A stretch of DNA of 43,680 nucleotides from IMG/VR virus record IMGVR_UViG_3300017694_000006, positions 1 through 43,680 of that record. One strand, 5' to 3'. The stretch is from a virus. Shown here in pieces: positions 10,868 through 43,680 of the stretch. The notes under the pieces were generated by a model, which saw only the letters and a list, made by a program, of their open reading frames with translations, had not been told where the DNA came from and searched no databases. Positions within the stretch are counted from its first letter, which is position 1. Each line of letters begins with the position of its first letter. Made by a program: the position numbers and the translations under genes.

Positions 10868-10890
10868 AATTATCCCCCATCCTCGGGGGT
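10868..10890 (+). promoter_or_regulatory. Family-B promoter motif AATTATCCCCCATCCTCGGGGGT (tandem with 10819)
   Basis: Lies 49 nt downstream of the previous copy. Confidence 0.55.
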
Positions 10891-10938
10891 GGGATCATTC
10901 TTAGGTTCCTATTGGCCCCGACTTCACTGGAGCTGTTC

Positions 10939-11151
10939 ATGTCACTCAACTCGCTTCGTCGGCGTAACCGTGCGCTGCGCATCAAGCTCGGGACCCGTCC
11001 TGAAGTGTTCGTCGACCCGCGTGAGCGAGTTGAGGCGGACCTTACCACCGTCACCCTGCACCCGACCAAGGGCTTCCGCCGCATCTGCGGGAAGCGGGCG
11101 GCTCTGTACGCCATCCCCGGCCTCGCCGCATGCACCACTGGAGCTACCTGA
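10939..11151 (+). CDS. Hypothetical protein (70 aa)
   Basis: ATG 6 nt after GGAG, with high third-position GC. Part of ORF-track 10861..11151. Confidence 0.5.
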   Translation: MSLNSLRRRNRALRIKLGTRPEVFVDPRERVEADLTTVTLHPTKGFRRICGKRAALYAIPGLAACTTGAT

Positions 11152-11197
11152 TGAACACTTTCGATCCCACCAAGCCGGTCGCGGTCGCCCTCGTCTG

Positions 11198-11473
11198 ATG
11201 CCTCCCCACACCATCCGCGACCGGGTGTCCTTCAGGTCCACCCTAGCCCCCCTCAAGACCCCAGCCTTTTCCATCCTGGACGCTCTGCAGTCTCACGCTG
11301 CTGACATCCAGCTCGAAGCGCTGGCTCTCACCTTCACCATCCTGGCCCGAGGGGCCGGGCTGAGTGCCCATGAGCTGGTCGACCGCGCTGGTCGGCAGCT
11401 CTCGGACGCCGAGGCGGTCCGCAACCCTATTCCCGAGGCCATCGCGGCCTACGCGCAAGGAGAACTCCGTTGA
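11198..11473 (+). CDS. Hypothetical protein (91 aa)
   Basis: ATG at 11198 in the frame of ORF-track 10841..11473. High third-position GC and a TGATG overlap upstream. Confidence 0.5.
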   Translation: MPPHTIRDRVSFRSTLAPLKTPAFSILDALQSHAADIQLEALALTFTILARGAGLSAHELVDRAGRQLSDAEAVRNPIPEAIAAYAQGELR

Positions 11474-12327: not shown

Positions 12328-12489
12328 ATGGACGAACTGCTCTACCTCAACATGGTCGAGGCCGCTGCCGAGCGCGCTGCCGAGACCGGCGCGGTTGACC
12401 TAGTCGACATCGCCAACGCCGCCGAAAGCGGCTTCGACACCACTCAGTTCATTGCAGACGCCACGGCTGCTGCCGAACTCCTCCATTAA
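12328..12489 (+). CDS. Small acidic hypothetical protein (53 aa)
   Basis: ATG directly after the upstream stop codon. Its own stop codon TAA lies inside the family-A motif CTCCATTAAC. Below the ORF-track cutoff. Confidence 0.4.
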   Translation: MDELLYLNMVEAAAERAAETGAVDLVDIANAAESGFDTTQFIADATAAAELLH

Positions 12490-12498
12490 CAGGATAAT
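12481..12498 (+). promoter_or_regulatory. Family-A motif variant CTCCATTAACAGGATAAT upstream of the SSB gene
   Basis: Lies 8 nt upstream of ATG 12506. Confidence 0.45.
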
Positions 12499-12505
12499 CC
12501 GACAC

Positions 12506-13264
12506 ATGGCGAAATCCACCTACGTGGCGGGGCCGAAGTTCACGACCCCCCGCGCTCCGGCTATCTGGCCGCGCCTCAACGAGGCCGATACGAAGTTCGA
12601 CGCCGCTGGCGTCTACGAGTGCAAACAAGAGCTGTCGCTCGACGACCCCATCGTCATCAAGATCAGGGCCAAGGCGTTGGAAATCGCCAAGGCCAAGTTC
12701 GAGGAGGTCAAGGAGACCTTGGCGGGCGAGAGCGGCGTGTTCTTCGACGAGGAAGAGTACGACGCGCGGGTTGCGGAGCTTAAGGCCTCTGGAAAGCAGG
12801 CCCTCATCAAGAAGCTCAAGCTCGTCACGCTGGTGGAGCCGCTGGCTCCTGAGGTCGACGACGAGGGCGACGAGACCGGCACCGTGATGCTGAAGGCCAA
12901 GATGAAGGCCTCAGGCGTCTACAAGTCCGGTAAGAAGAGCGGTGAAGCCTGGGAGCGCAGGCCCGACATCTTCAACGCCCAGGGCAAGCAGCTCACGAAC
13001 CCGCCGAAGATCGGCTCGGGCTCGGAAGTGAAGATGTCCATCGAGCTGAACCCTTACTACGCTGCCAGCGACGGCACCGTGGGTTGCTCCTTCCGTCTCT
13101 CGGCGGTCCAGCTCATCACCTTGGTCGCCTTCGGCCAGCGTGACGCTTCGGCCCACGGCTTTGGCGCGGAAGATGGCGACGACATCGACGACGAAGAGCT
13201 GAGCAGCGGCGGCGGTTTCAAGAACGAGACTGGCGGCGACAGCTCGGACGACGACGAGCTTTGA
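12506..13264 (+). CDS. Single-stranded DNA-binding protein (T7 gp2.5-like)
   Basis: MAKSTYVAGPKFTTPRA..., IGSGSEVKMSIELNPYY (T7 has IGGGSKLKVKYSLVPYK) and an acidic C-terminal tail GGDSSDDDEL. Confidence 0.85.
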   Translation: MAKSTYVAGPKFTTPRAPAIWPRLNEADTKFDAAGVYECKQELSLDDPIVIKIRAKALEIAKAKFEEVKETLAGESGVFFDEEEYDARVAELKASGKQALIKKLKLVTLVEPLAPEVDDEGDETGTVMLKAKMKASGVYKSGKKSGEAWERRPDIFNAQGKQLTNPPKIGSGSEVKMSIELNPYYAASDGTVGCSFRLSAVQLITLVAFGQRDASAHGFGAEDGDDIDDEELSSGGGFKNETGGDSSDDDEL

Positions 13265-13683
13265 CGTCCACTAGCTTCCGGCTTGCCATTGCCCCGATGC
13301 CTACTCCTCGACCAAGGGCGCGGGTTATCGTGGCGGCAGGGCGGAAGCCCATCGCTTCCTTCTACTCCCCCAAGGAATACCAGGAGTGGCAGAAAGAAGC
13401 GGCGCAGGCGCTGAAGAGCGTACCCGCGTTCCCCCTCGATGGACCTTGCGAAGTATCCATCATCTGCGAGGCGGCGAAGCCCAAGACCACCAAGCTGCCG
13501 CACCCCAAGTGGGACGTCGACAACGCTGCGAAAAGCGTTCTCGACGCCATCACGAAGGACGGTCGGTTCTGGGCCGACGACAGCCAAGTCGCGCTCCTGA
13601 AGGTCACCAAGAGGTGGACGGAGGGGGAGCCCGGCATCTCAGTACAGCTGGCACCGTGCGAGCCGCATGGGTCCAGTCTGTAG
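13261..13683 (+). CDS. rusA: RusA-family Holliday junction resolvase
   Basis: PMPTPRPRARV near the N-terminus, WDVDNAAKSVLDAI and FWADDSQV. TTG start overlaps the SSB stop codon. Confidence 0.75.
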   Translation: MTSTSFRLAIAPMPTPRPRARVIVAAGRKPIASFYSPKEYQEWQKEAAQALKSVPAFPLDGPCEVSIICEAAKPKTTKLPHPKWDVDNAAKSVLDAITKDGRFWADDSQVALLKVTKRWTEGEPGISVQLAPCEPHGSSL

Positions 13684-14146
13684 TTCCTGCGGCTACCCTG
13701 TCGCAGCGATCAAGCGAACCGGAGGCAGGCCTCGGAAGTGCCTAGGTTGTCAGAGGGAAGTCGCGAGGCTTTCTAAAGCAGCAGCGCGCGCCCGCAACGG
13801 CACGGGTATTAGGTGCCATCATCGCAAATGGATGGCCGACAACCCAGCCAAGCGAATGCTTTACTCTGCGAAGAGGCGGGCATCGCAGCAAGGTCTGCCG
13901 TTCAATCTGACTGAGGCTGACATCGAGGTTCCTGAGTTCTGCCCAGCTATGGGCATCCGACTGAAGACTTCGCCGGGTCCACGGGACAGGACCTCACCCA
14001 GCCTCGACCGCCTCAAGCCACACCTCGGCTACACCAAAGGCAACGTGGCCGTAATCAGCGACTACGCCAACCGCATCAAGCAGGACGCCACGCCCGAAGA
14101 GGTGATGGCCGTCGCTCGCTGGATGGAAACAATCAAGGACCCATGA
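13667..14146 (+). CDS. Free-standing HNH/His-Me-finger-like endonuclease, paralog 1
   Basis: N-terminal CxxC...CxxC, then LPFNLTEADIEVPEFCPAMGIRL...SPSLDRLKPHLGYTKGNVAVISDYANRIK. About 45 percent identical by eye to 19701-20126. Confidence 0.55.
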   Translation: MGPVCSSCGYPVAAIKRTGGRPRKCLGCQREVARLSKAAARARNGTGIRCHHRKWMADNPAKRMLYSAKRRASQQGLPFNLTEADIEVPEFCPAMGIRLKTSPGPRDRTSPSLDRLKPHLGYTKGNVAVISDYANRIKQDATPEEVMAVARWMETIKDP

Positions 14147-14607
14147 ACTACCGTCCAATGACCCGCATCGGGTTCATCGCGATCCATTGCTCGGCAACCC
14201 CGGCAACCTCGGTGAACATCGACGCAGCTGAAATCCGCCGCTGGCACCGTAAGCTGGGCTGGCGCGACATCGGCTACCACTTCGTCATCAAGCGCGATGG
14301 CACCGTCGAACCCGGTCGACCGGTCGACATGCCCGGAGCGCACGAACCGAAGATCAACTCCCAGTCCATCGCGGTCTGCCTCGTCGGCGGATCGCCGCCC
14401 ATCGGCTCCCCGGAGCAGAAGAAGGGCTTGGGAGAGAACAACTACACGCCCGCCCAGTGGGCCTCCCTGAAGAAGCTCGTCACCGAACTGCACGCCAAGC
14501 ACCCGAACGCGGTCGTCCTCGGACATCGCGACGTTCCCGGCGTGCGCAAGGCGTGCCCGAGCTTCGAAGCGAAGGCCTGGTGGTCGGAGAACAAACCCAC
14601 CTCGTAA
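14143..14607 (+). CDS. N-acetylmuramoyl-L-alanine amidase (T7 lysozyme gp3.5-like)
   Basis: IAIHCSAT, WRDIGYHFVI and VLGHRDV...KACPSF match the T7 lysozyme / PGRP amidase_2 pattern. Confidence 0.9.
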   Translation: MNYRPMTRIGFIAIHCSATPATSVNIDAAEIRRWHRKLGWRDIGYHFVIKRDGTVEPGRPVDMPGAHEPKINSQSIAVCLVGGSPPIGSPEQKKGLGENNYTPAQWASLKKLVTELHAKHPNAVVLGHRDVPGVRKACPSFEAKAWWSENKPTS

Positions 14608-14621
14608 ACGGAGAACCCGAG

Positions 14622-14864
14622 ATGTCCCGCTCAGAAAACAAAGCCGTCCTTGTGGCGAAGCACCTGCGCAAGCACGGCCACATCAGCCAAGGCAGCGCCA
14701 CTCTGGAGTACGGTAACTTCCGCCTCTCCGACGCCATCTTCCGGCTCCGCACCGACGACGATGACCTCATCCCTGAGGGCATGCGGATCATCACGGTGAC
14801 CAAGCGGGACGCCTCGGGTCACCCCTACGGCGAGTACCAGCTGGTGAAGAAGGGCTCGATCTGA
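14622..14864 (+). CDS. Small winged-helix (HTH_39-like) protein
   Basis: 80 aa. AVLVAKHLRKHGHISQGSATLEYGNFRLSDAIFRLR...YQL resembles the phage wHTH family. ATG 6 nt after GGAGAA. Confidence 0.45.
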   Translation: MSRSENKAVLVAKHLRKHGHISQGSATLEYGNFRLSDAIFRLRTDDDDLIPEGMRIITVTKRDASGHPYGEYQLVKKGSI

Positions 14865-15046
14865 TGGCGAAGCCGCAGCGCAAGCCCGTCTCCGCTGGGG
14901 CCCAGCCTCCCCGTGAGCTGATCCGCCGCACCACCGCTATGACCGATGCCATGGTCGACGCCTTCCGCAACGCGGGCCTCGACGTGAGCCGCGCCAAGCT
15001 CCCCGTCAAGCGCGAGACCACATGGTCCGTGACACGTCGGGGCTGA
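14864..15046 (+). CDS. Hypothetical protein (60 aa)
   Basis: TGATG overlap with the upstream gene and high third-position GC. Overlaps the primase start by 25 nt. Confidence 0.4.
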   Translation: MAKPQRKPVSAGAQPPRELIRRTTAMTDAMVDAFRNAGLDVSRAKLPVKRETTWSVTRRG

Positions 15047-16707
15047 GCGAAAGCAGCCTCCTCTACAAGACCAGCTGCCCCAGGGCGGACTGCGGATCAA
15101 GCGATGGGAACGCCGTCTATGATGACGGTCACACTTTCTGCTTCGTCTGTAGCCGCCCCGGGCGTGTCGATGGCGAGGAGGACTACACACCTCCCGCCAA
15201 AGGAAAGCGAATGGCTGGCCTGATAAGCGGCACAGTAGAGGCGATCCCGTCGCGCAAGCTCGACGACCGGGTCTGTCAGAAGTACAACTACCAAGTCGGC
15301 ACCTTCAGCGACAAGAAGTGCCACATCGCGCCGTTCTACGACGCCGAGGGCACGATGGTTGCCCAGAAGGTCCGCCTACCGGGTAAGGACTTCGTGGTCC
15401 TCGGGGACCTCAAGGCATCCCTCCCGCTCTTCGGGCAGCACCTATGCCGGGACGGCGGCAAGATGATCGTGGTCACCGAAGGTGAACTCGACGCCATGTC
15501 CGTGACCCAAGCAATGGGCCTGACGTGGCCCGCCGTCTCGATCCCACAGGGCGCACCTTCGGCCAAGAAGGCAATTGCCAAGGCCCTAGGGTTCCTCGAA
15601 GCGTTCGAGAAGGTCGTCTTCATGTTCGACCAGGACGACGTCGGGCAAGCCGCGATGGCGGACTGCCTGCCTCTCCTGTCCCCCGGCAAGGCCTACGTGG
15701 CCACGCTCCCGGCGGGCATGAAGGACGCCAACGACATGGTCAAAGCGGCCCGCTCCAAGGAGCTGGTCGACGCCATCTGGGGCGCGCGCAAGTACGTGCC
15801 GGAAGTCCTCAACGACATCGACGACGAACTGATCGACGATGCCTGTGAGGAGCAGGGCTGGGGGCTTCCCTGGCCCTACGTGTCGATGACCAAGGCGACC
15901 TACGGTATCCTTCGGGGCTGTGTGTACACCTGGGGAGCTGGCACGGGCTCTGGCAAGACCACCCTAATGCGGATGCTCATGGCTACGGCCATGCGTCCCG
16001 AGCTTGGCGAGGATCACTCGGAGTTCATGCCGATGCCCGCGCCGAGACCTGTTGGCACCATCCTGTACGAGGAGCCGCTGAAGCGGACCCTCAAGAACCT
16101 CGCGGGCCTCGTCATGAGGCAGCGCATCCACGTGCCCGGCACCGAGTACGACAAGGATGAGGCGAAGCGGATTATGAAGGAGCTGCGGCCTCTTCTGAAG
16201 TCCATCTCGCTCAAGGGCGCTCGGGACTGGGATGCCGTCAAGAACACCATCAGGTATCTTAACGCCTCCGAGGGCGTCGAGGACTTCGTGATCGACCCGA
16301 TGACCGCGCTCACTGCGGGCATCGAGAACGAGCGGCAGGCCCTTGACGGTATCATGTCCGACATGGCCGAGCTGGCCGAGGACTTGGACATCACAATCCA
16401 CCTCGTCTTCCACTTGGCGACCCCCGAAGGGAAGAGCCATGAGGATGGCGGGCGGGTGCAGGAGAAGCACTTCCGGGGCTCCCGCGCCGTCGCGTTCTGG
16501 TCGCACTTCCTGTTCGGCCTTGAGCGGAACAAGCAGGACCCCGACTGCCCCACGATCATCCGAGGTCTGAAGGATCGCCCAACCGGCGATGCCATCGGGC
16601 CGTTCATTGCGCTCACCTACGACAAAGCGACGGGCCACATGGTCGAAGTCGAGATGCCGGAGGATGGCGAGCGCCCCTTCAAGAACGAGGAGGACAATGA
16701 CCTCTAA
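15022..16707 (+). CDS. Bifunctional DNA primase/helicase (T7 gp4-like)
   Basis: Zinc motif CPRADCGSSDGNAVYDDGHTFCFVC, TOPRIM motif IVVTEGELDAMSV and Walker A GAGTGSGKTT. The acidic C-terminal end resembles T7 gp4. Confidence 0.95.
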   Translation: MVRDTSGLSESSLLYKTSCPRADCGSSDGNAVYDDGHTFCFVCSRPGRVDGEEDYTPPAKGKRMAGLISGTVEAIPSRKLDDRVCQKYNYQVGTFSDKKCHIAPFYDAEGTMVAQKVRLPGKDFVVLGDLKASLPLFGQHLCRDGGKMIVVTEGELDAMSVTQAMGLTWPAVSIPQGAPSAKKAIAKALGFLEAFEKVVFMFDQDDVGQAAMADCLPLLSPGKAYVATLPAGMKDANDMVKAARSKELVDAIWGARKYVPEVLNDIDDELIDDACEEQGWGLPWPYVSMTKATYGILRGCVYTWGAGTGSGKTTLMRMLMATAMRPELGEDHSEFMPMPAPRPVGTILYEEPLKRTLKNLAGLVMRQRIHVPGTEYDKDEAKRIMKELRPLLKSISLKGARDWDAVKNTIRYLNASEGVEDFVIDPMTALTAGIENERQALDGIMSDMAELAEDLDITIHLVFHLATPEGKSHEDGGRVQEKHFRGSRAVAFWSHFLFGLERNKQDPDCPTIIRGLKDRPTGDAIGPFIALTYDKATGHMVEVEMPEDGERPFKNEEDNDL

Positions 16708-17314
16708 AAATTGTGCCGACTGTCGGTTCGGGCCTGACTCAATCGAGAGCTGCCAAGCCCGCAGCTGCTTCGCAGACCCACGGTTTCCCGCATGGGAACC
16801 GCAGGAGCCCAAGTGTCTCATCGCCCCTACCGAGACTGCACCACGTTACGTCGACTGCTACCACAATCCCAAGTGGTGCGGATGCTCTCGTTGCTTCGAG
16901 GCACTTCGCCAGCTTCCGACACCGCAACCCGGCATCGGCCACAACGGCGGTCCACCTATCGCGGAATGGGCCGACAGCCCTTCGCTTCCTGACGCTGCTT
17001 CAGCGCGCAACGAGTACCCGATGGCCGATGGCCTTCTGGACTACTTCCCGAACGCTCTGGCTGAGGTCGCGAAGCTCTCGCACTTGGCAACCCAGCAGCA
17101 TCATCCCGATCAGGAAATGCACTGGGACCGCAGAAAGTCCACGGATCACCGCAACAAGATCATCCGGCACCTCGCGGACACCCACACGGTGGACGACAAG
17201 GGCCTCGATCATTGGGCGATGGTCTGCTGGCGGGCCCTGGCTGGCTACCAGGACTACCTCGAACGCAAGCACAGCCTGCCGCCGTCCCGCGCCTCGCGCA
17301 ACCGACCCTTCTGA
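16697..17314 (+). CDS. Cys-rich protein with a DUF5664-like C-terminal domain (dATP/dGTP pyrophosphohydrolase-associated domain)
   Basis: ATG 16697 in the frame of ORF-track 16589..17314. YPMADGLLDYFPNALAEVAKLSHLATQQHHP...W.RRKS...RHL...D..GLDHWAMVCWRALA resembles the recollected DUF5664 pattern. Confidence 0.45.
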   Translation: MTSKNCADCRFGPDSIESCQARSCFADPRFPAWEPQEPKCLIAPTETAPRYVDCYHNPKWCGCSRCFEALRQLPTPQPGIGHNGGPPIAEWADSPSLPDAASARNEYPMADGLLDYFPNALAEVAKLSHLATQQHHPDQEMHWDRRKSTDHRNKIIRHLADTHTVDDKGLDHWAMVCWRALAGYQDYLERKHSLPPSRASRNRPF

Positions 17315-17335
17315 TTAACCCCCACCATCGGAGAA
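17313..17335 (+). promoter_or_regulatory. Family-B (T3-like) promoter motif GATTAACCCCCACCATCGGAGAA
   Basis: Overlaps the upstream stop codon TGA. The predicted +1 G at 17330 makes GGAG the first transcribed bases. Confidence 0.65.
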
Positions 17336-17340
17336 TGAAC

Positions 17341-17640
17341 ATGATCGCACGCATCCGCACCTTCGCTGCCATCCTCGTCGGCTACGCTCTGGCCGCAGCC
17401 GCGACTGTCCTTAGCTACGTTTCGGGCCTCCTCGACCGCCTGCCGGTGTCCATCGACCGAACCGTCGCGGGCCTCGACAAGATCGTCGCCAAGCTGGAGC
17501 GCGCCGAGGCGCAGCATCAGGCACGCATCGACCGCGAAATCGCGTTCCAGGAAGCCAGCTACGCTCGCGAAGACGCCGCCGCATCGGCAGCCGACCGCGC
17601 CGCCCGCGTCCGCGCTCGCATCGCCAAGCTGCTCGACTAA
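17341..17640 (+). CDS. Membrane-anchored coiled-coil protein
   Basis: MIARIRTFAAILVGYALAAAATVLSYV (TM segment) followed by an Ala/Arg/Glu-rich helix. ATG 17341 lies 7 nt after GGAG, and an in-frame ATG at 17335 is an alternative. Confidence 0.5.
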   Translation: MIARIRTFAAILVGYALAAAATVLSYVSGLLDRLPVSIDRTVAGLDKIVAKLERAEAQHQARIDREIAFQEASYAREDAAASAADRAARVRARIAKLLD

Positions 17641-17643
17641 CAC

Positions 17644-17661
17644 TTCCGTTAGCCTGAGCAT
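17644..17661 (+). promoter_or_regulatory. Family-A motif variant TTCCGTTAGCCTGAGCAT
   Basis: Begins 6 nt after the stop codon TAA at 17638-17640. Confidence 0.45.
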
Positions 17662-19700: not shown

Positions 19701-20126
19701 ATGACCCCTCGCATCCAACGCGAGCCGGGGGCCTACTGCGCAGAGAGAGCCATCCTCACTCGGGCCCGTTCGCGGGCTCGGGAAAAGGGTGTGCCTTTCT
19801 CGCTCACGTACCTCGACATCGTTATCCCCGACCGCTGCCCCATACTTGGGATCAAGCTGGAGCGGGGCACTAGCGGCGGGCTCGACAGCTCACCGTCTCT
19901 CGACCGCATCATCCCCGCGCTCGGCTACGTGCCGGGCAACGTGAGAGTGATCGCCAACCGCGCGAACAGGATCAAGTCGGACAGCACCCCCGAGGAGCTG
20001 TCCCGCATCCTCACCTACGTCCTCGAAAACGACCCCAACAACGCCAAGCGCCGAAGGAGGCCTCATGCGAAAACTTCTAAGGACAATGCTTCGCTGGCTG
20101 CGTCTTCTGACGTCCAGTCGAGATAA
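19701..20126 (+). CDS. Free-standing HNH/His-Me-finger-like endonuclease, paralog 2
   Basis: VPFSLTYLDIVIPDRCPILGIKL...SPSLDRIIPALGYVPGNVRVIANRANRIK. Lies immediately downstream of the DNA polymerase gene. Confidence 0.55.
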   Translation: MTPRIQREPGAYCAERAILTRARSRAREKGVPFSLTYLDIVIPDRCPILGIKLERGTSGGLDSSPSLDRIIPALGYVPGNVRVIANRANRIKSDSTPEELSRILTYVLENDPNNAKRRRRPHAKTSKDNASLAASSDVQSR

Positions 20127-20316
20127 TCAGACCCCGGATATAATCCGCATCGGGTCCATACTCTTCGGCATGTGGGCTCTCGGGCTCACCGCCTGGGACG
20201 TGCTAGTCCTGAACCATCAGTTCGACATGCTCAACTACAGCGGCGGCGTGGCAGCGATCCTGACCTCGACCGGCGCGGCGCTGGGCCTCAAGCGCAAGGA
20301 CGAACCTGAAGCATGA
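20065..20316 (+). CDS. Two-TM small membrane protein, a holin candidate
   Basis: 83 aa with TM segments IIRIGSILFGMWALGLTAW and GGVAAILTSTGAALGL and a charged C-terminus KRKDEPEA. GGAGG lies upstream. Overlaps the tail of the HNH gene. Confidence 0.4.
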   Translation: MRKLLRTMLRWLRLLTSSRDNQTPDIIRIGSILFGMWALGLTAWDVLVLNHQFDMLNYSGGVAAILTSTGAALGLKRKDEPEA

Positions 20317-21071
20317 CGCTTCAGACCCTCGACCTCTTCGCAGGGGTCGGGGGCTTCTCCCTCGGTCTCGAAAGGACCGGCGGGTTCCGCACCTCAGCCT
20401 TCTGCGAAATCGACCCCGCCGCCCGGCGCGTACTCAACAAAAACTGGCCGGAAGTGCCGGTGTTCGAGGATGTCGCGCAGCTCACCAAGGAAAACTTCGA
20501 TGTCCCTGTCGACGTCATCACTGGCGGGTTCCCCTGTCAGGACATATCATTCGCCCGAACCGGAAGCGGCAAGGGACTCGGGCTCGCCCTCGCGGGTGCC
20601 CGCTCGGGCTTGTGGTTCCAGTTCCGCCGACTCATCTCCGAGTACCGCCCGCGCTTCGCGATCATCGAAAACGTCTCTGCCCTGCGAACTCGGGGACTGG
20701 ACGTCGTCCTCAGCGGGCTCGCTGCGCTCGGGTATGATGCGGAGTGGCACTGTATACCCGCTGGAGCCGTTGGCGCTCCTCAACGCAGGGACCGGGTGTG
20801 GGTCGTTGCCTACACCTGCGGCTCGGGACTTTCGGGACCTCTCCTCAGCGGGAGTTCCTTACCCCTCACAGCTCCGCCGCAACTCTCCCAGCTTGGCGAC
20901 CTTACTGTACAAAGCGGGGCTTGCTGGCCCTCTCATTCCACAGCTCTACGAGTGGGTGATGGGCTTCCCGATTGGCCACACCGCCTGAAGCAGATGGGCA
21001 ACGCTGTTGTCCCCGCCATTCCCGAGATGATCGGGAGAGCAATCCTCAGATACCTGAAGGAAAACCCATGA
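20313..21071 (+). CDS. dcm: DNA (cytosine-5)-methyltransferase. The region between motif VIII and motif X looks frame-disrupted
   Basis: Motif I DLFAGVGGFS, motif IV GGFPCQDIS, motif VI IIENV, motif VIII QRRDRVWVVA and motif X GNAVVP are in this frame. LPTPAARD and YEWVMGFPIGHT are in the +1 frame (ORF 20470..20988). Confidence 0.8.
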   Translation: MTLQTLDLFAGVGGFSLGLERTGGFRTSAFCEIDPAARRVLNKNWPEVPVFEDVAQLTKENFDVPVDVITGGFPCQDISFARTGSGKGLGLALAGARSGLWFQFRRLISEYRPRFAIIENVSALRTRGLDVVLSGLAALGYDAEWHCIPAGAVGAPQRRDRVWVVAYTCGSGLSGPLLSGSSLPLTAPPQLSQLGDLTVQSGACWPSHSTALRVGDGLPDWPHRLKQMGNAVVPAIPEMIGRAILRYLKENP

Positions 21072-21346
21072 CCATCCAAGCAACCATCGTGCCCCCTCGG
21101 GGCCGCATCACAGAGCGCGAGCTAATCGCTGCCAGCAACTCGGTCAAAGCCCTGCGCTCGCTCCGCCAGTTGCAAGGTGCCATCGACCGGAACGCCTGCG
21201 CTCAGGTTCGCATCCAGTCGCCCAAGGGCTCCACCGAACTCCCACTCTTCGACGACGAGCTGGAAGCCGTGGTCGCCCTGCTGATCGAAAGACACTCGGT
21301 GTTCCTCGCGGGACTCGATGTGGAACTGGAAGTGTTGAGCAAGTGA
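21068..21346 (+). CDS. Hypothetical protein (92 aa)
   Basis: ATGA overlap with the dcm stop codon. In the frame of ORF-track 20972..21346. Confidence 0.5.
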   Translation: MTIQATIVPPRGRITERELIAASNSVKALRSLRQLQGAIDRNACAQVRIQSPKGSTELPLFDDELEAVVALLIERHSVFLAGLDVELEVLSK

Positions 21347-21363
21347 CCGAGGAGACCGCCGCA

Positions 21364-21477
21364 ATGGTGGAGCGCCTCTTCGCCGCCATTGCTCATGGCG
21401 CTGAGGACCACCGAGACTGGCTGCATGAGGCGCTGGTCGCGTTCTTCTCCGGTCTGCCGCTTCCGGCGGTGCGATGA
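21364..21477 (+). CDS. Small hypothetical protein (37 aa)
   Basis: ATG 9 nt after GAGGAG. The stop codon overlaps the next start (ATGA). Below the ORF-track cutoff. Confidence 0.3.
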   Translation: MVERLFAAIAHGAEDHRDWLHEALVAFFSGLPLPAVR

Positions 21478-21863
21478 CGATCCCCAAGACCTCCTTCAGG
21501 CTCCTAGGGCTCACCCTCGCTGCCCTAGCAGCCATTCTCGTCGCCTACTGGCTCCTCACAGCCCCTGCGCGCTCTCGCAAGGCAACCGCAATCTCCACCG
21601 CAACCGCCGCTTCTGCCTCAGCCTCCAAGGCTGCCGCGCAGGACACCATCAAAATCCTCGTCGAGACCCAAGCGACCCACGGGCGCATCGACGTAGTCAC
21701 TCAAGGAAACCGCGATGCCATTCTCGCCGCTGATGGCGCGACTGAGGCGGTGGGGTCTGGTGTTCACAACGCCGGTCTTCATGCTCTCTGCTTGCGCGAC
21801 ACCTATCGTCTACAACCGGCCTGCCAGCGACTGCTCGACGCTGGTGCCGAAGGTCCTCGTTGA
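21474..21863 (+). CDS. Putative i-spanin (Rz-like, N-terminal TM anchor)
   Basis: FRLLGLTLAALAAILVAYWLL is a TM segment followed by a periplasmic region. An overlapping out-of-frame lipoprotein gene follows. Confidence 0.5.
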   Translation: MTIPKTSFRLLGLTLAALAAILVAYWLLTAPARSRKATAISTATAASASASKAAAQDTIKILVETQATHGRIDVVTQGNRDAILAADGATEAVGSGVHNAGLHALCLRDTYRLQPACQRLLDAGAEGPR

Positions 21864-22062
21864 GGCAACCCTAGGTGCGCCTCTTCCTGCGGACCCTTCT
21901 GCTGGGTCTTGGGTTGTCTTTGGGGACGCCCAGACCGGCCAGCTCGACAAGGCCAACACAGATAAGCGAGCTGCTCACGACATCGTGACGGCCTGTGAAC
22001 TTCGGGACCGTGAGGCCGCTAAGGGGATCAGCAAGCGCCCCTGGTGGGCGGTGTTCGGGTGA
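21715..22062 (+). CDS. Putative o-spanin (Rz1-like outer-membrane lipoprotein)
   Basis: Signal peptide MARLRRWGLVFTTPVFMLSAC with lipobox L-S-A-C. Starts inside the i-spanin gene in another frame, 6 nt after AGGAA. Confidence 0.55.
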   Translation: MPFSPLMARLRRWGLVFTTPVFMLSACATPIVYNRPASDCSTLVPKVLVEATLGAPLPADPSAGSWVVFGDAQTGQLDKANTDKRAAHDIVTACELRDREAAKGISKRPWWAVFG

Positions 22063-38029: not shown

Positions 38030-40198
38030 ATGGCAACTCAAGTTACCTACGTGGGCGACGGCACGACCGTCACCTACGCGATCCCGTTCGACTACTCAGC
38101 AGACGGGAGCGATTTGAATGTGACGGCGGACGGATCGACGATCCAGTTCAGCCTCGACAATGCGTCCACCTTGCGGCTCCTTTCAGCTCCCGCCGTGGGC
38201 TCCACAATCCGGGTGTTCCGTAAGACCCCCTTCGAGACACCGGAGGTAGTCTTTGCGGATAGCTCCATCTTATCCGCAGGTGACCTCAACGCTGCTTCCG
38301 GGCAGGTGTTCAGGCGGCTCCAGGAGCTGGATGACGATCACCGTGAGGTGGCCGCGCGCTCCTTCCAGAGCCCCGTTGGGGAGACGGGACTTGAGCTGCC
38401 ACCCGCATCCTCGCGGGCCAGTCGCTTCCTTACGTTCGATGCCGATGGCCTCCCGATCATGTCGGAAGGAACCGGCTCCGATCCTGCCCTTCGAGGTGAC
38501 CTAAGTTCCCCTGACGCCGGTAAAGGGTCCGACCTACTGCGCTTTGTGCAGAGCGGCTCCGGTGCGCTCGCGCGATCCGCAAGGGCGAAGATGGGGGATT
38601 GGCGCAACGTCTTGGACTACGGCGCTGTGGGCGACGGCCTAGCGGACGATACCTCGGCGCTCCAGGCAGGAGACCTTGCAGGACCGCTGCTCGTCACATC
38701 GCCGCACCGCATCAGCCACTCGATCACGCTAAGCCGCCATGTTCAGTTCGCGGGCGCTGGTCGTCTTCTGATCGACGCCGGAGCTACCGTCACCTTTGCT
38801 GATGGCTTGACGGCACCCGACCGCCAAATCTTCTACGGCAGCGGCAACGTCGCGGGCCTACAGTATTCGAAGATGACGTGGTTCGCGGGAGACTATCGAA
38901 ACACGTATACCGACGCCTTGTCGCGCCTTCAGAAGGCCGCAGACGCATGCGTCGAGTACGCGATGGTTGAACATCCGGTCGGCTTCTTCGCCATCAGTGG
39001 GAATACTCCCGTGGTGTTTCGCAAGGGCCAGTTCTACTTCGGCTACGGGTCGATGAAGAGCGAAGTCCGGTTCACATCCTCTACGTCCAATGTGTGGGCC
39101 TTTGAGGGAGTGGGCAGCGGGAAGATCGAAGGGGTGTCCTGTGTAGGCGTCAACGGCCTACCTGCCACTGACGGTTACGCGCTGGAAATCACTGCGCAGT
39201 ACACGACGTGGAACGACGTGTTCATCCGCAGCGGTTTCACAGGTATCCGCGTGGAGTTCGTGGTTGGCGTCAAGGGCACCAACTTCAACGTCTACGACTG
39301 CACCAGCATTGGCGTCGACATCAACAACGTCAACGACGTGTTCTTGTCGCAGTTCCTCATCAGCGCGCCGCTTGACTACCTCAACATGTCAGCCGTGTCT
39401 GGCACCTTCGCCCCCGGCGAGACAATTGTAGGGACCACTTCGGGAGCAACCGCCCATGTCGTCCTGCAAGCCTCGGCTACGGTCCTGCGCGCAGGCGTGG
39501 ACGGCAAGAACTTCACCGCAGGCGAAGCAATCACCGGCGTAGTCTCGGGAGCGACCGCAACGCTTGTGTCTCAGGATGTGCACCACGCGCTGGGCGGCAT
39601 CCGCCTGACCAACAAGGTCGAGGCGCTTGTCGTCACGGATGGCGACATCATCGGCGGGGCGTTCTCCATGACCACGGACGCCAACCTCAACGCCCCCTAC
39701 GTGCGACCGGCTTACAACAAGTTCACCAACGTCTACTTCGACAGCGGCGACGGCGGAGTGGTCATCGACAAGTCCGTCGAGTTCGACTTCGTGTCTTGTT
39801 GGTTCAGCAACCGGCCCGGCAGCGGGATCACCCTACTGGGGACTGACGGTATGCGCTTCCTCGGCGGTGGTGCCATCAACTGCCATAAGCACGGCGTGGT
39901 GATCGAGGCAGCCGCCAAGCGCACGGTCTTCAACGGCTTCGCCGCTCGCGGCAACAGCCAGGAGAACGCGGGCACCTACCATGGTCTGGCGTTCGCGTCC
40001 GGGGTCACAGACTTCGTCGTGACCGGATGCACGCTCGGGGGCAGTATCGGGTTCGGAAACCAAGGCTACGGACTCATCGTCTACCCTGGCGCATCAGACC
40101 GTTACACAATCTCCGCGAACCTCATTGGAGGTAACCAATCTGCTGGCATCCAAGATGGCGGCACCGGAGTGAACAAGACAATTTCAGGAAACTGGTAA
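38030..40198 (+). CDS. Tail fibre/tailspike: T7 gp17-like N-terminal adaptor plus a pectate-lyase-like beta-helix
   Basis: ATG after AAGGAG. MATQVTYVGDGTTVTYAIPFDY...IRVFRKTP is the gp17-type N-terminus. NVLDYGAVGDGLADDTSALQAG is the typical start of a right-handed beta-helix depolymerase. Confidence 0.88.
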   Translation: MATQVTYVGDGTTVTYAIPFDYSADGSDLNVTADGSTIQFSLDNASTLRLLSAPAVGSTIRVFRKTPFETPEVVFADSSILSAGDLNAASGQVFRRLQELDDDHREVAARSFQSPVGETGLELPPASSRASRFLTFDADGLPIMSEGTGSDPALRGDLSSPDAGKGSDLLRFVQSGSGALARSARAKMGDWRNVLDYGAVGDGLADDTSALQAGDLAGPLLVTSPHRISHSITLSRHVQFAGAGRLLIDAGATVTFADGLTAPDRQIFYGSGNVAGLQYSKMTWFAGDYRNTYTDALSRLQKAADACVEYAMVEHPVGFFAISGNTPVVFRKGQFYFGYGSMKSEVRFTSSTSNVWAFEGVGSGKIEGVSCVGVNGLPATDGYALEITAQYTTWNDVFIRSGFTGIRVEFVVGVKGTNFNVYDCTSIGVDINNVNDVFLSQFLISAPLDYLNMSAVSGTFAPGETIVGTTSGATAHVVLQASATVLRAGVDGKNFTAGEAITGVVSGATATLVSQDVHHALGGIRLTNKVEALVVTDGDIIGGAFSMTTDANLNAPYVRPAYNKFTNVYFDSGDGGVVIDKSVEFDFVSCWFSNRPGSGITLLGTDGMRFLGGGAINCHKHGVVIEAAAKRTVFNGFAARGNSQENAGTYHGLAFASGVTDFVVTGCTLGGSIGFGNQGYGLIVYPGASDRYTISANLIGGNQSAGIQDGGTGVNKTISGNW

Positions 40199-40199
40199 C

Positions 40200-40391
40200 G
40201 TGCAAATCACGCAGTCACAATTTATGAGCATGGTTCGCGCGCTTGCTCCGGCTCTTTTCAAAGACGCAAGGGCAGAGATGGCTACGGCCCGCGAAGCTCT
40301 GGTGGGCCGACACAGGTCCGCGCTTGAGGGCGAGGGTTTCGTTATCGTCCCCGATGCGCCCCTCGCTGACCCGAGCGTGCCCGAGAGATGA
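40200..40391 (+). CDS. Hypothetical protein (63 aa)
   Basis: GTG start immediately after the tail fibre stop codon. No motif. Confidence 0.35.
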   Translation: MQITQSQFMSMVRALAPALFKDARAEMATAREALVGRHRSALEGEGFVIVPDAPLADPSVPER

Positions 40392-40612
40392 ACCTGTCTG
40401 CACTCCGCGATCACCTTATCTCGGTGGTCGCGGGGGCGGCTGTCCTCGGCGGCAGCGCTACCCTCATCTCCACCAAGATCGACGTGACCGTACTGACGGA
40501 ACGCGTCGACAAGCTGGAAAAGCTCAACGAGAACGTTGAGGGCCTCCGCGACGACCTACAGTCCACCCGCGAGGAACTCATCCGTTCGCAGCTTCGGGAC
40601 ACCCGCAAGTGA
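40388..40612 (+). CDS. Single-TM protein with a charged coiled-coil tail. Holin candidate in the T7 gene 17.5 position
   Basis: LISVVAGAAVLGGSATLI is a TM segment, followed by ERVDKLEKLNENVEGLRDDLQSTREEL. Lies between the tail fibre gene and terS. Confidence 0.35.
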   Translation: MNLSALRDHLISVVAGAAVLGGSATLISTKIDVTVLTERVDKLEKLNENVEGLRDDLQSTREELIRSQLRDTRK

Positions 40613-40881
40613 CCCGCGCTGGCTCCGACATCATGGATATGCTCCACGGCTTGGTCGCTACCGGCCTGACCGAGGAGCTGCAGCGGGCCATTACGGCTGC
40701 CGCCGATCCAGACCCCGCTAAGCGGGTCGCTATCAACCCGCAGTTAATCGACAAGGCCCTGAAGTTCCTGAAGGACAACGGGGTGGACGCGCCACGCGCG
40801 AACAAGAAGGTCGACGTCCTCGCGGGCGTCCTGACCGACTTGGACCTTGACGAAGTCGCTGCCGCGCAAAGGATGAACTAA
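40609..40881 (+). CDS. terS: Terminase small subunit (T7 gp18-like)
   Basis: 90 aa (T7 gp18 is 89 aa). Called from synteny, with a helical N-terminus and NPQLIDKALKFLKDNG resembling gp18 SPQLYNAINKLLDRH. Confidence 0.65.
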   Translation: MTRAGSDIMDMLHGLVATGLTEELQRAITAAADPDPAKRVAINPQLIDKALKFLKDNGVDAPRANKKVDVLAGVLTDLDLDEVAAAQRMN

Positions 40882-40920
40882 CTCCATGAACTCTACGCCC
40901 GGTGCCGGGGGCCACGCTTG

Positions 40921-41217
40921 ATGGCCTCTGGAACCTTGGTGAAAGGCGTCAGCTCGATGTTCGCTGATGTCTCTGTGGCTGCCCTCACCGCAGCTCAAGC
41001 AGCCGGGACCGACCCGGTACTCGCCGCTAACCCCTACCGCGCGGCGCTAAAGATCGTTCCGCCCAAGAATTGCACCCTGGCCTATGCCAGCGCCGCGCGC
41101 GGTGAACCTCTGTTCGCCGGTGTGACGAATTCCTTCGTCGGCGGGGACTGCGCCGCCAATGCCTTGTACGTTCGCGGGTTAGCAGCCGGTGACGTCCTAG
41201 TGATCTTGGAGGGCTGA
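40921..41217 (+). CDS. Hypothetical protein (98 aa), first gene of the terS-terL cargo island
   Basis: ATG 40921 (TTG 40918 in the ORF track). No motif. Confidence 0.45.
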   Translation: MASGTLVKGVSSMFADVSVAALTAAQAAGTDPVLAANPYRAALKIVPPKNCTLAYASAARGEPLFAGVTNSFVGGDCAANALYVRGLAAGDVLVILEG

Positions 41218-41218
41218 C

Positions 41219-42781
41219 GTGGGCGCACCTATTGCGGCAATAGCCGTGGGTCCGCTGGCGGCGCAGGTGCCCCAGCGCAATGCCAACCTGATCCCTCTAC
41301 GTGCTGCCTTAATACAAGGAACGGCTCGCGTTGTGTTCGCTGGCGACAGCATCCTAGAGAACAATAACCAAAACTCGCGGTTTTCCGGCCTGCCTTACAT
41401 CATTCAACGATTGTTTGGCGAAGAGTTTCCTGAGGCGGCTATCGAGTATGTCAATTTGGCGCTTGGCGGACGCGATGCATGGCATCTTGCCAGCCCCGCG
41501 TATGTCGGCTTGGCTGCGGATAACTCGCCAAACACGGGGTACTATCGGCAGGCGAACAACACCCTAAACAATAACGGCGTGTGGCGGACTGAAGACGGGA
41601 CGACGCTCAATGGATCGGTCATCGGTGAGGCATGGCTTGAAGCGGTAAAACGTGTTCAACCGGATGCCGTTTTCATGAACTTCGGTCTTAACGAGGACCC
41701 AGGCAAAAACCCCTGCACCGATCCTGCAGGCTATTACCGCTCGATGAAGTATCTGATCGATGCTATGGCGGGTTGGTCAAAGCGACCCACGATCATCATC
41801 GCAACCTCCCATACCGGGCTTCCCGACACAGCAGGCAGGACTGACGATCTAGCGGGCCGGGCACTTGGGCTTACCGTGGGGCGGATCGCGCGGGCGCTCG
41901 CAAAGCAATACAAGCTGCCAATTATTGACGGCCAGCGGCAATATGAATTGCTAACCCGTGGCGTGGACGTCACTAACCCGGAGCCGCACGTCGAAGCTGG
42001 ATTACGCTATAATGGCGGGCTGAACTCCGGCGCGGCGTTCACGCTAGACCCGACCTATTGGGCCACTTACGCCAGCGACGGCACCACTGCGTCCAGTGCC
42101 AGCGGAGCTACATTCCGTGGTGACGGCAACGCCGCTTGGCACTATTTCCGTAAGCGGAACACGCCTAATGGACATGTCCAGGTATCATTTACACCTAACA
42201 CATCAAATCCGAGGCCTGAGGTTTATTATCGGGCTGTGCCCGGCACCACGTCTCTGACCGACGACAAGTACCTAGTCCGACTAAATGGCGCGAACGTGGA
42301 ACTTGCGAGCTATGACACGCTCACGAATGGAAGCTCTAATACACTGCGAGTGATCGCATCTGCGCCGCTTGATGTCGCCGTAAGTAATGGGCAAACTTAT
42401 TATCTAGATATTGTATTTGACGGCGCGCGTCACATCATTCGCGTGAATGGCAAGATGAAGATAGACACGACCGATTACACGCACATGCGCTCGGGTTGGA
42501 TTGGTTTCGGTCAGGGTGCTAGCGGGCAGAACACCGCGATCAAGATCGGCGTCGGCTTTCAGGACGGCGTTTATGTCGAGTATTTCGACGACAAGGTGGT
42601 GAACACCTCGCCGGCCTACACTGACGCGAACCTGCTCGGCACGGTCAATGATTGGGGCACCAACCCGGATAGCGTAGGGGGTAATACCAGCGTCCACATG
42701 ACAACGGCTGCATACGGTCTGGTTTATGAACCGGCAGTCAAAGACATGCTTAAGCGGCTGCGCGCCGCCATGGCACTTTGA
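41219..42781 (+). CDS. SGNH/GDSL-type esterase domain fused to a lectin/LamG-like jelly-roll C-terminal domain
   Basis: Block I VVFAGDSILENN, block II LALGGRD and block III FMNFGLNE. No clear DxxH block V was seen. The C-terminal half shows the Y.L.IVFDG....IRVNGK......GWIGFG pattern. Visibly AT-richer DNA. Confidence 0.65.
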   Translation: MGAPIAAIAVGPLAAQVPQRNANLIPLRAALIQGTARVVFAGDSILENNNQNSRFSGLPYIIQRLFGEEFPEAAIEYVNLALGGRDAWHLASPAYVGLAADNSPNTGYYRQANNTLNNNGVWRTEDGTTLNGSVIGEAWLEAVKRVQPDAVFMNFGLNEDPGKNPCTDPAGYYRSMKYLIDAMAGWSKRPTIIIATSHTGLPDTAGRTDDLAGRALGLTVGRIARALAKQYKLPIIDGQRQYELLTRGVDVTNPEPHVEAGLRYNGGLNSGAAFTLDPTYWATYASDGTTASSASGATFRGDGNAAWHYFRKRNTPNGHVQVSFTPNTSNPRPEVYYRAVPGTTSLTDDKYLVRLNGANVELASYDTLTNGSSNTLRVIASAPLDVAVSNGQTYYLDIVFDGARHIIRVNGKMKIDTTDYTHMRSGWIGFGQGASGQNTAIKIGVGFQDGVYVEYFDDKVVNTSPAYTDANLLGTVNDWGTNPDSVGGNTSVHMTTAAYGLVYEPAVKDMLKRLRAAMAL

Positions 42782-42794
42782 CCGTCGTGACCCC

Positions 42795-43076
42795 CTAGGA
42801 CCCCTTAGGCACACAATCGAAGGTCACGGTGTAGCCATGCTGCCCCGTGGCCCTCGGTATCCTGCCGTACTTCTCGCAGTGAACCGTCGCGTACTTCAGC
42901 GCGTCGTTCACGGTCCAGACGTTGAACACCGAGACGAACGCTTCATTCCCGTCGACCTTGGCGGGGAGAATGCGCGTCGTCTCGCAGCCTGACAGCAGCA
43001 CGGGGAGGATGAGGAGGGCCAACTTCTTCATCCTCCTGCTGTGCCCTACGGCTAACCCGAAGGCAACTTCTGACAT
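42795..43076 (-). CDS. Small secreted lipoprotein, reverse strand (moron-like)
   Basis: Signal peptide MKKLALLILPVLLSGC with lipobox L-S-G-C. The long form starts at 43076 (GGAGG 10 nt upstream) and the short form at 43031. Confidence 0.75.
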   Translation of the reverse strand: MSEVAFGLAVGHSRRMKKLALLILPVLLSGCETTRILPAKVDGNEAFVSVFNVWTVNDALKYATVHCEKYGRIPRATGQHGYTVTFDCVPKGS

Positions 43077-43120
43077 CCCAAGAAATCCTCCAGGGGTCCT
43101 TTCTTAAGTTCCTCTGGTAC

Positions 43121-43680
43121 GTGTGGACCCGGTTGCTGCTCTTGCCGCAGCCGACCCGCGTACAGTTAGACATCGCCCGCTTCCTAGAGACGGGAGGACG
43201 CCGCCGGTTCATCCAGGCGTTCCGAGGGGTCGGCAAGACCTTCCTCACTGCAGCCTACGTGGTCTGGCGTCTCTGGAAGAACCCTAACCTCAAGATCATG
43301 ATCGTGTCTGCGAATGAAGCGTTCGCGACCGAGATTGCTCTCTTCATCAAGCAAATCATCGAGCATGAGGCTGGCGACGACCTATGGTCCGAGCTGCGCT
43401 CCAGGCCCGGCCAGCGGACCTCCGCACTAATCTTCGACGTCGGACCTGCGAAGGCCGACAAGAGCCCCTCGGTGAAAGCCGTGGGTATCACGGGACAGCT
43501 CACGGGCTCCCGCGCTGACATCGTCCTATTCGACGACACCGAGGTTCCGAAGAACTCGGAAACCGAGACCATGCGCGAGAAGCTGGAGATCAAGACCCAG
43601 GAGGCTGCGGCCATCCTGAAGCCGGGCGGGGAAATCCTCTACCTAGGCACTCCGCAGTCCCAGTCCTCGATTTACCGAAA
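43121..43680 (+). CDS. terL: Terminase large subunit, 5' portion (runs off the window end and continues at base 124 of the window). Start uncertain: GTG 43121 or CTG 43070
   Basis: Walker A FIQAFRGVGKTF and Walker B ADIVLFDDTE. QLDIARFL...FRGVGKT parallels T7 gp19 QIDMAKVL...FRGIGKS. The frame is open from 43013. Confidence 0.9.
   Translation, partial: MWTRLLLLPQPTRVQLDIARFLETGGRRRFIQAFRGVGKTFLTAAYVVWRLWKNPNLKIMIVSANEAFATEIALFIKQIIEHEAGDDLWSELRSRPGQRTSALIFDVGPAKADKSPSVKAVGITGQLTGSRADIVLFDDTEVPKNSETETMREKLEIKTQEAAAILKPGGEILYLGTPQSQSSIYR
43558..43680. repeat. Second copy of the contig end overlap (identical to 1-123)
   Basis: Same 123-nt string as the window start. It lies inside the terL reading frame. 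Confidence 0.95.

Follow-up and report, generated by a model that had tools for sequence, protein, structure and literature searches.

Some phage enzymes remove acetyl groups from a receptor instead of cutting it. Such enzymes increasingly emerge as major determinants of host range whose importance has been under-recognised, above all in temperate phages (PMC13123978). Deacetylation of receptors by SGNH receptor-binding proteins (RBPs) has been experimentally established for gp63.1 of phage G7C, which deacetylates the O-antigen, and for enzymes of Klebsiella prophages (cited in PMC7693777 and PMC13123978). Pectobacterium T7-like phages bear horizontally acquired SGNH spikes, and SGNH modules are exchanged among Autographiviridae (PMC7693777). 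In Klebsiella prophages, SGNH RBPs are among the commonest enzymatic domains (PMC13123978). A gene of this kind is described here in the viral record IMGVR_UViG_3300017694_000006 of IMG/VR, of which the whole stretch of 43,680 nucleotides (positions 1 to 43,680, hereafter the window) was analysed. It lies between the terminase genes terS and terL, in the company of a small upstream gene and of a reverse-strand lipoprotein gene.

These three open reading frames (ORFs) are laid out as proposed in the initial annotation of the sequence, and all three are real genes, since each has homologues in other assemblies. The first one, called w99 (40921-41217, + strand; 98 or 99 residues, with an alternative start at 40918), is followed by the gene of a 520-residue SGNH esterase (41219-42781, + strand) and, on the opposite strand, by the lipoprotein gene (42795-43076). 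The explanation that we favour, with a little better than even confidence, is that of an accessory receptor-deacetylating enzyme, expressed late, for which w99 would be an adaptor or a chaperone, next to an unrelated lipoprotein moron. The enzyme itself is a variant of a well-known kind, and the w99 partnership is the one element that could be new.

A split SGNH esterase with tail-spike relatives

The 520-residue protein is predicted to be a complete SGNH hydrolase, with S44, G84, N158 and H493 all present. In an alignment of 40 members of its family, S44 (FAGDSILE, block I; 41348-41350), N158 (GLNE, block III; 41690-41692), D237, G488 and H493 are invariant, and G84 (LGGR, block II; 41468-41470) is nearly so, which bears out the earlier recognition of blocks I-III. 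Block V, which had been reported as not obvious, is indeed present: H493 (42695-42697) lies in GGNTSVHMT, where the family consensus reads GGNGxNHP. It was overlooked because a beta-sandwich insertion pushes this block close to the C-terminus.

The structure was modelled with AlphaFold2 (AF2). The model derived from the 40-sequence alignment has a predicted local distance difference test score (pLDDT) of 85.3 and a predicted template-modelling score (pTM) of 0.88; with only the three closest sequences, the pLDDT was 37.7. In this model, an alpha/beta/alpha domain formed by residues 25-247 and 469-519 is interrupted by an all-beta domain, residues 249-460. The corresponding coding segments on the + strand are 41291-41959 for the first part of the SGNH domain, with blocks I-III, 41963-42598 for the inserted beta-sandwich, and 42599-42781 for the second part of the SGNH domain, with block V and the C-terminal helix. 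The SGNH strands (residues 35-42, 74-79, 150-154, 191-196 and 235-237) alternate with helices, the last helix spanning residues 496-519, and the model displays the five-strand, three-layer alpha/beta/alpha arrangement of the SGNH fold. The lectin-like part, initially placed in the C-terminal half of the protein, appears in this model as an insertion between strand 5 and block V.

The insert has a CBM66 or ConA-like lectin fold. It resembles the CBM66 structure 4b1m (Foldseek E 6.8e-10, TM-score 0.76 on the target) and matches a CBM66 levanase module in a profile search (hmmsearch E 4.6e-9 over 156 positions); PF06439 is present in three members of the esterase family. For the catalytic part, a profile match was obtained with the acetyl-mannan esterase CEX (6hfz; E 2.3e-9). 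Together with the signature residues and the predicted fold, these matches are in line with the earlier suggestion of an SGNH esterase coupled to a carbohydrate-binding module, glycan deacetylation being the most likely chemistry. In the proposed mechanism, the CBM66-like insert would hold the host surface polysaccharide, and Ser44-His493, with Gly84/Asn158 forming the oxyanion hole, would remove O-acyl groups, most likely O-acetyl groups.

Two features weigh against catalysis of this kind. The Asp expected three residues before the catalytic His (DxxH) is absent, this position being occupied by T490 here and by Gly, Asn or Thr in the relatives, so that activity seems probable and not certain. 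The enzyme would either work as a Ser-His dyad or take its acid from elsewhere, candidates being the invariant D237 and the nearly invariant D478. The other feature is the Pfam profile GDSL_2 (PF13472), which scores 29.7 bits on the window protein, below the gathering score of 32.9; a match at E <= 1e-3 is found in 31 of the 40 family members. Both would suit a catalytically dead or repurposed protein, serving as a glycan-binding adhesin or as an acyltransferase. This explanation looks highly improbable, since the Ser, Gly, Asn and His residues are strictly or nearly invariant over relatives sharing 20-65% identity, which argues for maintained catalysis. Furthermore, SGNH esterases with a Ser-His dyad, for example in family CE2, are active, and no membrane acyl-donor partner (AT3 or MBOAT), which would go with an acyltransferase role, is found nearby.

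The kinship of the enzyme was revealed by an exhaustive profile search of a representative library, which retrieved 287 relatives, as compared with only two (64% and 35% identity) in a word-indexed search. Most of the best 150 of these 287 relatives are 600-900 residues long, and their region of similarity starts at residue 100-340. Their extra N-terminal parts match Phage_T7_tail and BppU_N, some members of the family match Pect-lyase, and many match PHROG 'tail fiber/tail spike' families. The window esterase has no PHROG match of its own. When its model was compared by Foldseek with BFVD, the best match was the tail spike of Pectobacterium phage Possum (E 1.3e-20, 506 aligned columns), followed by an SGNH protein of Escherichia phage anhysbys (E 9.5e-19). 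Two homologues have telling neighbours: the gene of P0002 (64% identity) lies directly 3' of a major-tail-protein-like gene, and that of P0009 (37% identity) directly 5' of an SU10-type adaptor gene. Searches with tblastn against 50,697 GenBank phages gave no match for the esterase, the lipoprotein or w99, and pattern scans of IMG/VR for the esterase and the lipoprotein found no relative. By sequence and family comparison, the window protein is the enzymatic body of an esterase tail spike, devoid of its particle-binding domain.

The catalytic domain begins after only about 24 residues, of which residues 1-17 have a pLDDT below 50 and are predicted to be disordered. The last phage-type promoter (23750) is situated upstream of the gene, which is encoded on the + (late) strand and specifies no signal peptide, the N-terminus of the enzyme being similar to the charged, non-signal N-termini of related enzymes. 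Because there is no anchor and no signal peptide, and because transcription is late, the enzyme most likely acts from the outside at adsorption, as an accessory RBP. Deacylation would then uncover or generate a receptor, to be used by the primary beta-helix spike (38030-40198) or in irreversible binding. Among the functions suggested in the initial annotation, that of a second virion-associated enzyme appears to fit better, in view of a family dominated by tail fibres and spikes, of the late strand and of the missing signal peptide.

The main rival explanation is a soluble enzyme, absent from the virion and released at lysis, which would strip acyl groups from capsule, exopolysaccharide or debris. 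It would thereby aid the escape of the progeny or destroy the receptors on lysed cells, and w99 would be a folding factor or a regulatory subunit. Several observations speak in its favour or weigh against attachment to the particle. No N-terminal virion-anchor domain, either of the T7-tail type or of another type, was matched in the 520-residue protein, for which there is no evidence of trimerisation, and the gene stands outside the structural block, among packaging genes. Sequence searches with the primary spike brought up only a T7-tail N-domain (E 1.2e-10) and a beta-helix, and no T4gp10-like branching domain; residues 100-190 of this spike have no sequence match in the PDB. A soluble enzyme seems nevertheless rather unlikely, given a family dominated by fusions to tail fibres and spikes, best structural matches that are tail spikes, and close homologues encoded inside structural modules. 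Moreover, T7-like phages offer well-established examples of second RBPs that lack an anchor and whose genes lie at a distance from that of the fibre (PMC6872550).

The small partner gene w99

In the initial annotation, the 98-residue protein was simply an unknown. This still holds for family searches, in which w99 has no match in Pfam, PHROG, NCBIfam, PADLOC or GenBank phages, but it misses the fact that w99 is a conserved partner of SGNH enzymes. Homologues with 41-59% identity are found in 10 other contigs. In six of eight informative and independent phage contexts (the window, L012, L013, L014, L054 and L056/57), w99 lies directly upstream of an SGNH hydrolase, and the enzymes concerned span at least four architectures. 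Those of L012-L014 belong to other SGNH subfamilies, since they are missed by the family profile of the window esterase. The distance between the w99 stop codon and the start of the enzyme is 1-5 nt in six of seven cases, including 1 nt in the window, and 66 nt in the other one. The gene 3' of w99 codes for a 355-residue protein, beta-helix-like by eye, in a Stakelama pacifica prophage (L015), and is partial and uncharacterised in L008. In L055, the w99 domain forms the C-terminus of a 332-residue ORF that is fibre-like by eye.

Five of the eight enzymes encoded 3' of w99 start with a similar peptide (MGAPIAAIAVGPLAAQ, MADLVAAVLVGSAKVE, MADNVAAKLVGEAKAQ, MTNMVAAKAVGELA and MGDEAAILVGPAKAQV), short and of low complexity, of the form MxDxVAAxLVGxAKAQ. 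The window peptide, a candidate docking peptide encoded at 41219-41290 (+ strand), aligns with the N-termini of the enzymes of L012, L008, L054 and L056. It has the native GC content of the genome, and the composition of the gene changes just behind it. The 520-residue gene as a whole has a GC content of 0.564, to be compared with 0.633 +/- 0.013 in all other segments of equal size (z -5.2, none being as low), and its GC at third codon positions (GC3) is 0.62, the mean of the large genes being 0.78. At fine scale, the GC content falls some 60-100 nt into the ORF and recovers at the stop codon. The neighbouring genes are ordinary for the genome, with a GC content of 0.633 for w99 and of 0.603, with a GC3 of 0.84, for the lipoprotein gene. 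The lower-GC island initially ascribed to the interval is therefore real for the esterase gene and does not extend to the two others.

A similar contrast surrounds the 64%-identical copy of the esterase in contig L003: its GC content is 0.547, that of the flanks 0.62-0.635, and both its N-terminus and the gene upstream of it differ from those of the window. The composition points to the esterase body as a probable recent swap-in from a lower-GC source, behind native-GC w99 and N-terminal peptide. Together with the shared peptide, it points more generally to a possible exchange of enzyme bodies behind a constant w99-plus-peptide unit. The docking peptides of the second RBPs in KP32/KP34-type phages follow the same logic (PMC6872550).

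In the mechanism that we favour, w99 and the esterase would represent a first acquisition, a tightly coupled late-strand pair whose products would be made together late in infection. Holding the enzyme on the particle, or folding it, would be the task of w99, perhaps via the short N-terminal peptide; we infer that it acts as an adaptor or assembly factor for the downstream enzyme. A more specific proposal can be put forward tentatively: w99 could belong to an undescribed family of small proteins which, in diverse phages, would recognise the MxDxVAAxLVGxAKAQ peptide and serve glycan-modifying enzymes that lack an anchor, either as their own docking platform or as a partner required for their assembly. 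These enzymes are for the most part SGNH esterases, of several architectures unrelated to one another. Such a plug-and-play attachment, distinct from T4gp10-like branching domains, is possible rather than probable. If it exists, docking on w99 would let enzyme bodies swap behind the constant unit, as the position of the GC break suggests.

Some observations do not favour docking. The shared peptide, a short stretch with many Ala, Val and Gly residues, is missing from three of the eight w99-linked enzymes, and a similar 'VGALADQ' stretch occurs in close relatives without w99 (P0002 and P0003). The w99 cassettes of L007 and L015 come right after endolysin and spanin genes, at the prophage end, and that of L054 comes right before genes that are holin- and endolysin-like by eye; such positions also fit a soluble enzyme released at lysis. 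The fusion of the w99 domain to the fibre-like ORF of L055 argues in the other direction. The w99 protein is not detectably related to known adaptors, and no paralogue was found by hmmsearch in the window genome.

Two possible relationships of w99 were considered and rejected. It shows no detectable relation to the small genes lying 5' of esterase homologues (L003, L010, L011) and to an 88-residue gene of L019 (hhalign probability below 3% for each), and it does not look like the detached N-terminal anchor of long-form tail spikes, for which hmmsearch gave zero matches. As a separate observation, the genes immediately 5' of the esterase homologues in L003 (498-1013) and L010 (1494-1676), two unrelated contigs, code for proteins with a common C-terminal motif (LTFSDGTPLAYSDGTYLELAA and LTFTDGNALQFSDGQYLEFSA) and run over the start codon of the esterase gene; this enzyme family may thus possess another partner system, distinct from w99. 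In metagenomic contigs, a small conserved gene (94-112 residues, motif RLRL(T/S)GTGT(V/I)TIDAR) precedes the w99 homologue (L054, 453-791; L056, 1220-1504), and the w99 cassette may have three genes in some phages.

The reverse-strand lipoprotein and the terS-terL slot

The lipoprotein gene (42795-43076, - strand) has two possible starts, ATG 43031 for a short form and ATG 43076 for a long form. The product carries a signal peptide and the lipobox MKKLALLILPVLLSGC (pattern [LVI][ASTG][GA]C), as read from the sequence, the Cys predicted to be lipid-modified being encoded at 42984-42986. Its sole homologue found, P0008 (54% identity), has an LTGC lipobox, and the lipobox Cys and two further Cys are conserved. 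Contig L009 encodes P0008 at this very site and likewise on the reverse strand: the order there is terS, reverse lipoprotein gene and terL start, with nothing else, neither w99 nor esterase. No match was obtained in Pfam, and no relevant one among the PADLOC defence models. A PRK11372 match falls wholly on the signal peptide, the NCBIfam matches are at signal-peptide level only, and a match to the Cor family phrog_1119 (E 0.0023) covers residues 16-62, starting within the signal peptide.

The gene is best described, from its sequence features, as an older, separate and moron-like gene. It would be the second acquisition of the locus, of native composition and on the opposite strand, a layout typical of a moron expressed from the prophage. 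A function in the envelope, such as exclusion, is a guess. Among the usual marks of a moron, the opposite strand is present, yet the GC3 is backbone-like, only a weak hairpin follows the stop codon, and no promoter was found. This last point weighs against prophage expression: searches for sigma-70-like and phage-type promoters of the lipoprotein gene were negative, and a loose search of the upstream region for TTG...-type elements was unconvincing. The hairpin lies between the two convergent stop codons (42767-42830; dG -22.5 kcal/mol, z -2.2 as compared with shuffled sequences) and has no U tract. No sigma-70-like promoter, phage-type promoter, Rfam family or tRNA was detected in the whole region 40000-43680.

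It had been suggested that the esterase and the lipoprotein form one lysogenic-conversion or superinfection-exclusion unit, which would remodel the surface of the lysogen. The integrase gene of the genome (PF00589, 5248-6666) makes a prophage state plausible, the two genes are adjacent and convergent, and the lipoprotein is encoded on the opposite strand as morons are, with its weak match to Cor. This joint cassette is nevertheless the least probable of the explanations considered. The esterase, made from the late strand and lacking a signal peptide, could not gain access to the cell surface as long as the lysogen is alive. The two genes stand on opposite strands and differ in composition (GC3 of 0.62 and 0.84). 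The lipoprotein never adjoins the esterase homologues (L003, L004, L010, L011) or the w99 homologues, and the Cor match runs from the signal peptide into the mature part and is weak, with no real support from Pfam, NCBIfam or PADLOC. Since L009 carries the reverse lipoprotein gene alone, the esterase and the lipoprotein gene are rather separate acquisitions.

The site itself is variable. On its left border lies terS (40609-40881, + strand), coding for a small terminase subunit of the T7 gp18 type (PF11123, E 4.8e-9, above the gathering score; phrog_891, E 2.8e-12); on its right border lies terL (43070-43680, + strand, continuing at 1-1234), identified by a DNA match to the terL genes of Caulobacter phage S2B and 'Mycobacterium phage jiawei' from 43070 onwards. 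A terL-based scan of IMG/VR yielded 38 related contigs, whose terL N-termini are 30-92% identical to that of the window (at least 49% in all but one); none of these contigs carries w99, the esterase or the lipoprotein. A terS homologue is found upstream of terL in 35 of them. It abuts terL in 19 of these 35, and the others have a gap of 0.4-4.2 kb filled with unrelated cargo. One such cargo is a collagen-repeat protein (L036, Pfam E 3.7e-15), the only Pfam match among ten cargo proteins of related contigs. By eye, the others include large fibre-, beta-helix- or glycoside-hydrolase-like proteins, a small HNH-like protein, and small secreted or membrane proteins encoded on the reverse strand. 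An unannotated family (136-398 residues, with shared C-terminal motifs such as YVKFYNKxSAPT) recurs in the slot of five related contigs: L001 (5654-6487, gp004c of S2B, an isolated temperate Caulobacter phage), L018, L037, L040 and L044. The idea of an insertion hotspot, already put forward in the initial annotation, is upheld by this variation in gap size, from about 0 to 4.2 kb, and in cargo. The terS-terL junction would therefore be the variable cargo slot of the lineage, in which two independent acquisitions would have taken place here.

The right border deserves a comment, as terL has no ATG, GTG or TTG codon between the in-frame stop at 43010-43012 and GTG 43121. The 17 residues read from CTG 43070 (LTSQEILQGSFLKFLWYVW) align with the very N-terminus of the terL products of S2B and jiawei. 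At the homologous position of 29 related loci, the codon is ATG in 11, TTG in 11, GTG in 2, CTG in 3 and CTC in 2. Contig L009 likewise has CTG at this position, preceded by a similar AAGGCAA motif. Translation of terL probably begins at CTG 43070, about 50 nt upstream of the first canonical start codon. The long-form start of the lipoprotein gene (43076) would overlap this CTG start head to head, by 7 nt.

The genome is that of a complete, circularly represented T7-like phage of about 43.6 kb and 63% GC. Positions 1-123 and 43558-43680 are identical over 123 bases, which reflects either a circular-assembly overlap or a terminal repeat, and terL accordingly spans the two ends of the window. 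The whole window is identical to a metagenome contig of ENA and partly identical to a Logan contig from a different sample. A gene for a single-subunit, T7-type RNA polymerase (7007-9499) is directly preceded by that of the tyrosine integrase (PF00589 assignment precomputed), and the phage is probably temperate because of this integrase. No tRNA gene was detected anywhere in the window. The nearest sequenced relatives by terL DNA are S2B and jiawei, with about 75% identity, over terL only, which places the phage in an alphaproteobacterial lineage of temperate-type Autographiviridae.

The spanin pair recognised earlier at 21474-22062 is consistent with such a function as read from the sequence, with an N-terminal transmembrane segment in the 21474-21863 product and a lipobox in the 21715-22062 product. 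A separate holin-like gene completes this region (20065-22062), where the ORF 20313-21071, between the holin-like ORF and the spanin-like pair, shows by eye the motifs of a cytosine-5 DNA methyltransferase (FCEIDP..., GGFPCQDIS). Directly upstream of terS, and overlapping it, the gene 40388-40612 codes for a 74-residue protein with a transmembrane segment and a coiled coil, which is kept in several related contigs (33-61% identity). It could correspond to the holin of T7 (gene 17.5), although this would be in addition to the holin-like gene just mentioned.

Two repeated motifs were also observed. The motif AATTAWCMCCCACCMTCGG, which resembles promoters of T3/T7-class phages, occurs seven times (0.04 expected by chance), on the + strand at 6916, 9534, 10819, 10868, 17313 and 23750 and on the - strand at 1608-1626. 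This lone - strand copy, a perfect match, is one arm of the hairpin ACCCACCC-CCGA-GGGTGGGT, situated just 3' of a 76-residue gene downstream of terL; it faces terL and, about 2.1 kb beyond, the lipoprotein gene. The second motif, CTTCCATTARCCCGA, has 14 matches for 1.3 expected, with about 12 + strand sites at 2201-17657, in the early and middle region; it could represent either another class of promoter or a regulatory site.

Comparison with known systems

To what is known of receptor-deacetylating phage enzymes, this locus contributes an SGNH esterase devoid of an anchor, whose catalytic domain is split by a CBM66-like module. It also provides clear evidence for the transfer of enzyme bodies from one phage backbone to another, unrelated one, and brings to light a conserved small partner gene that is unrecognised by current annotation pipelines. 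The comparative data also mark the terS-terL junction as a cargo slot in an alphaproteobacterial lineage of temperate T7-like phages. If w99 is an attachment or assembly factor, its presence would help to predict which stand-alone esterase genes code for virion components, and it would provide a compact handle for the engineering of receptor-binding modules.

The lipoprotein gene is reminiscent of bor in lambda and of cor in phi80 and N15, which are likewise small antisense lipoprotein genes of the late region, near the packaging genes, in phages bearing an integrase. The window lipoprotein differs from Bor and Cor by the absence of significant homology, its match to Cor being weak and extending from the signal peptide, and no promoter could be found. 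As regards the enzyme, CEX (6hfz) and CBM66 (4b1m, 4azz) provide a similar association of an SGNH domain with a beta-sandwich glycan-binding domain. In CEX the beta-sandwich is appended, whereas in the phage protein it sits inside the SGNH domain; the identity is only 11-15%, and the context is that of a phage.

The closest known counterparts are the spikes of G7C (gp63.1), of Pectobacterium phages PP99, Q19, PP47 and PP81, and of Possum, in which an SGNH domain serves to deacetylate a surface polysaccharide without cutting it, as is proposed for the window protein. The G7C and Pectobacterium spikes own an N-terminal particle-binding domain, either T7-fibre-like or, in G7C, acting via gp66, in contrast to the approximately 20 disordered residues of the window protein. 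Their genes also differ from the present one in that it lies between terS and terL, with w99 as a dedicated small upstream partner. To call this combination and its location unusual, as was done at first, is overstated: SGNH esterase RBPs are well documented (PMC7693777, PMC13123978), and genes of second RBPs or SGNH enzymes away from the tail-fibre gene are known in T7-like phages (PMC6872550, PMC7693777).

Anchorless enzymatic RBPs are indeed exemplified by RBP2 of KP32/KP34-type phages and by the SGNH genes at the genome ends of PP1 and POP72, all of them encoded, like the window esterase, at a distance from the gene of the primary fibre or spike, either among the DNA maturase genes or past them (PMC6872550, PMC7693777). 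RBP2 of the KP32/KP34 type has a conserved N-terminal docking peptide, and the window esterase likewise combines a short N-terminal peptide, here a candidate for docking, with a body that can be swapped. In the KP32/KP34 system the primary RBP bears a T4gp10-like branching domain, of which sequence searches gave no sign in the primary spike of the window; the docking partner proposed here is instead a separate 98-residue protein, unrelated to known adaptors. As compared with PP1 and POP72, the window gene is found inside the terS-terL junction and not after terL.

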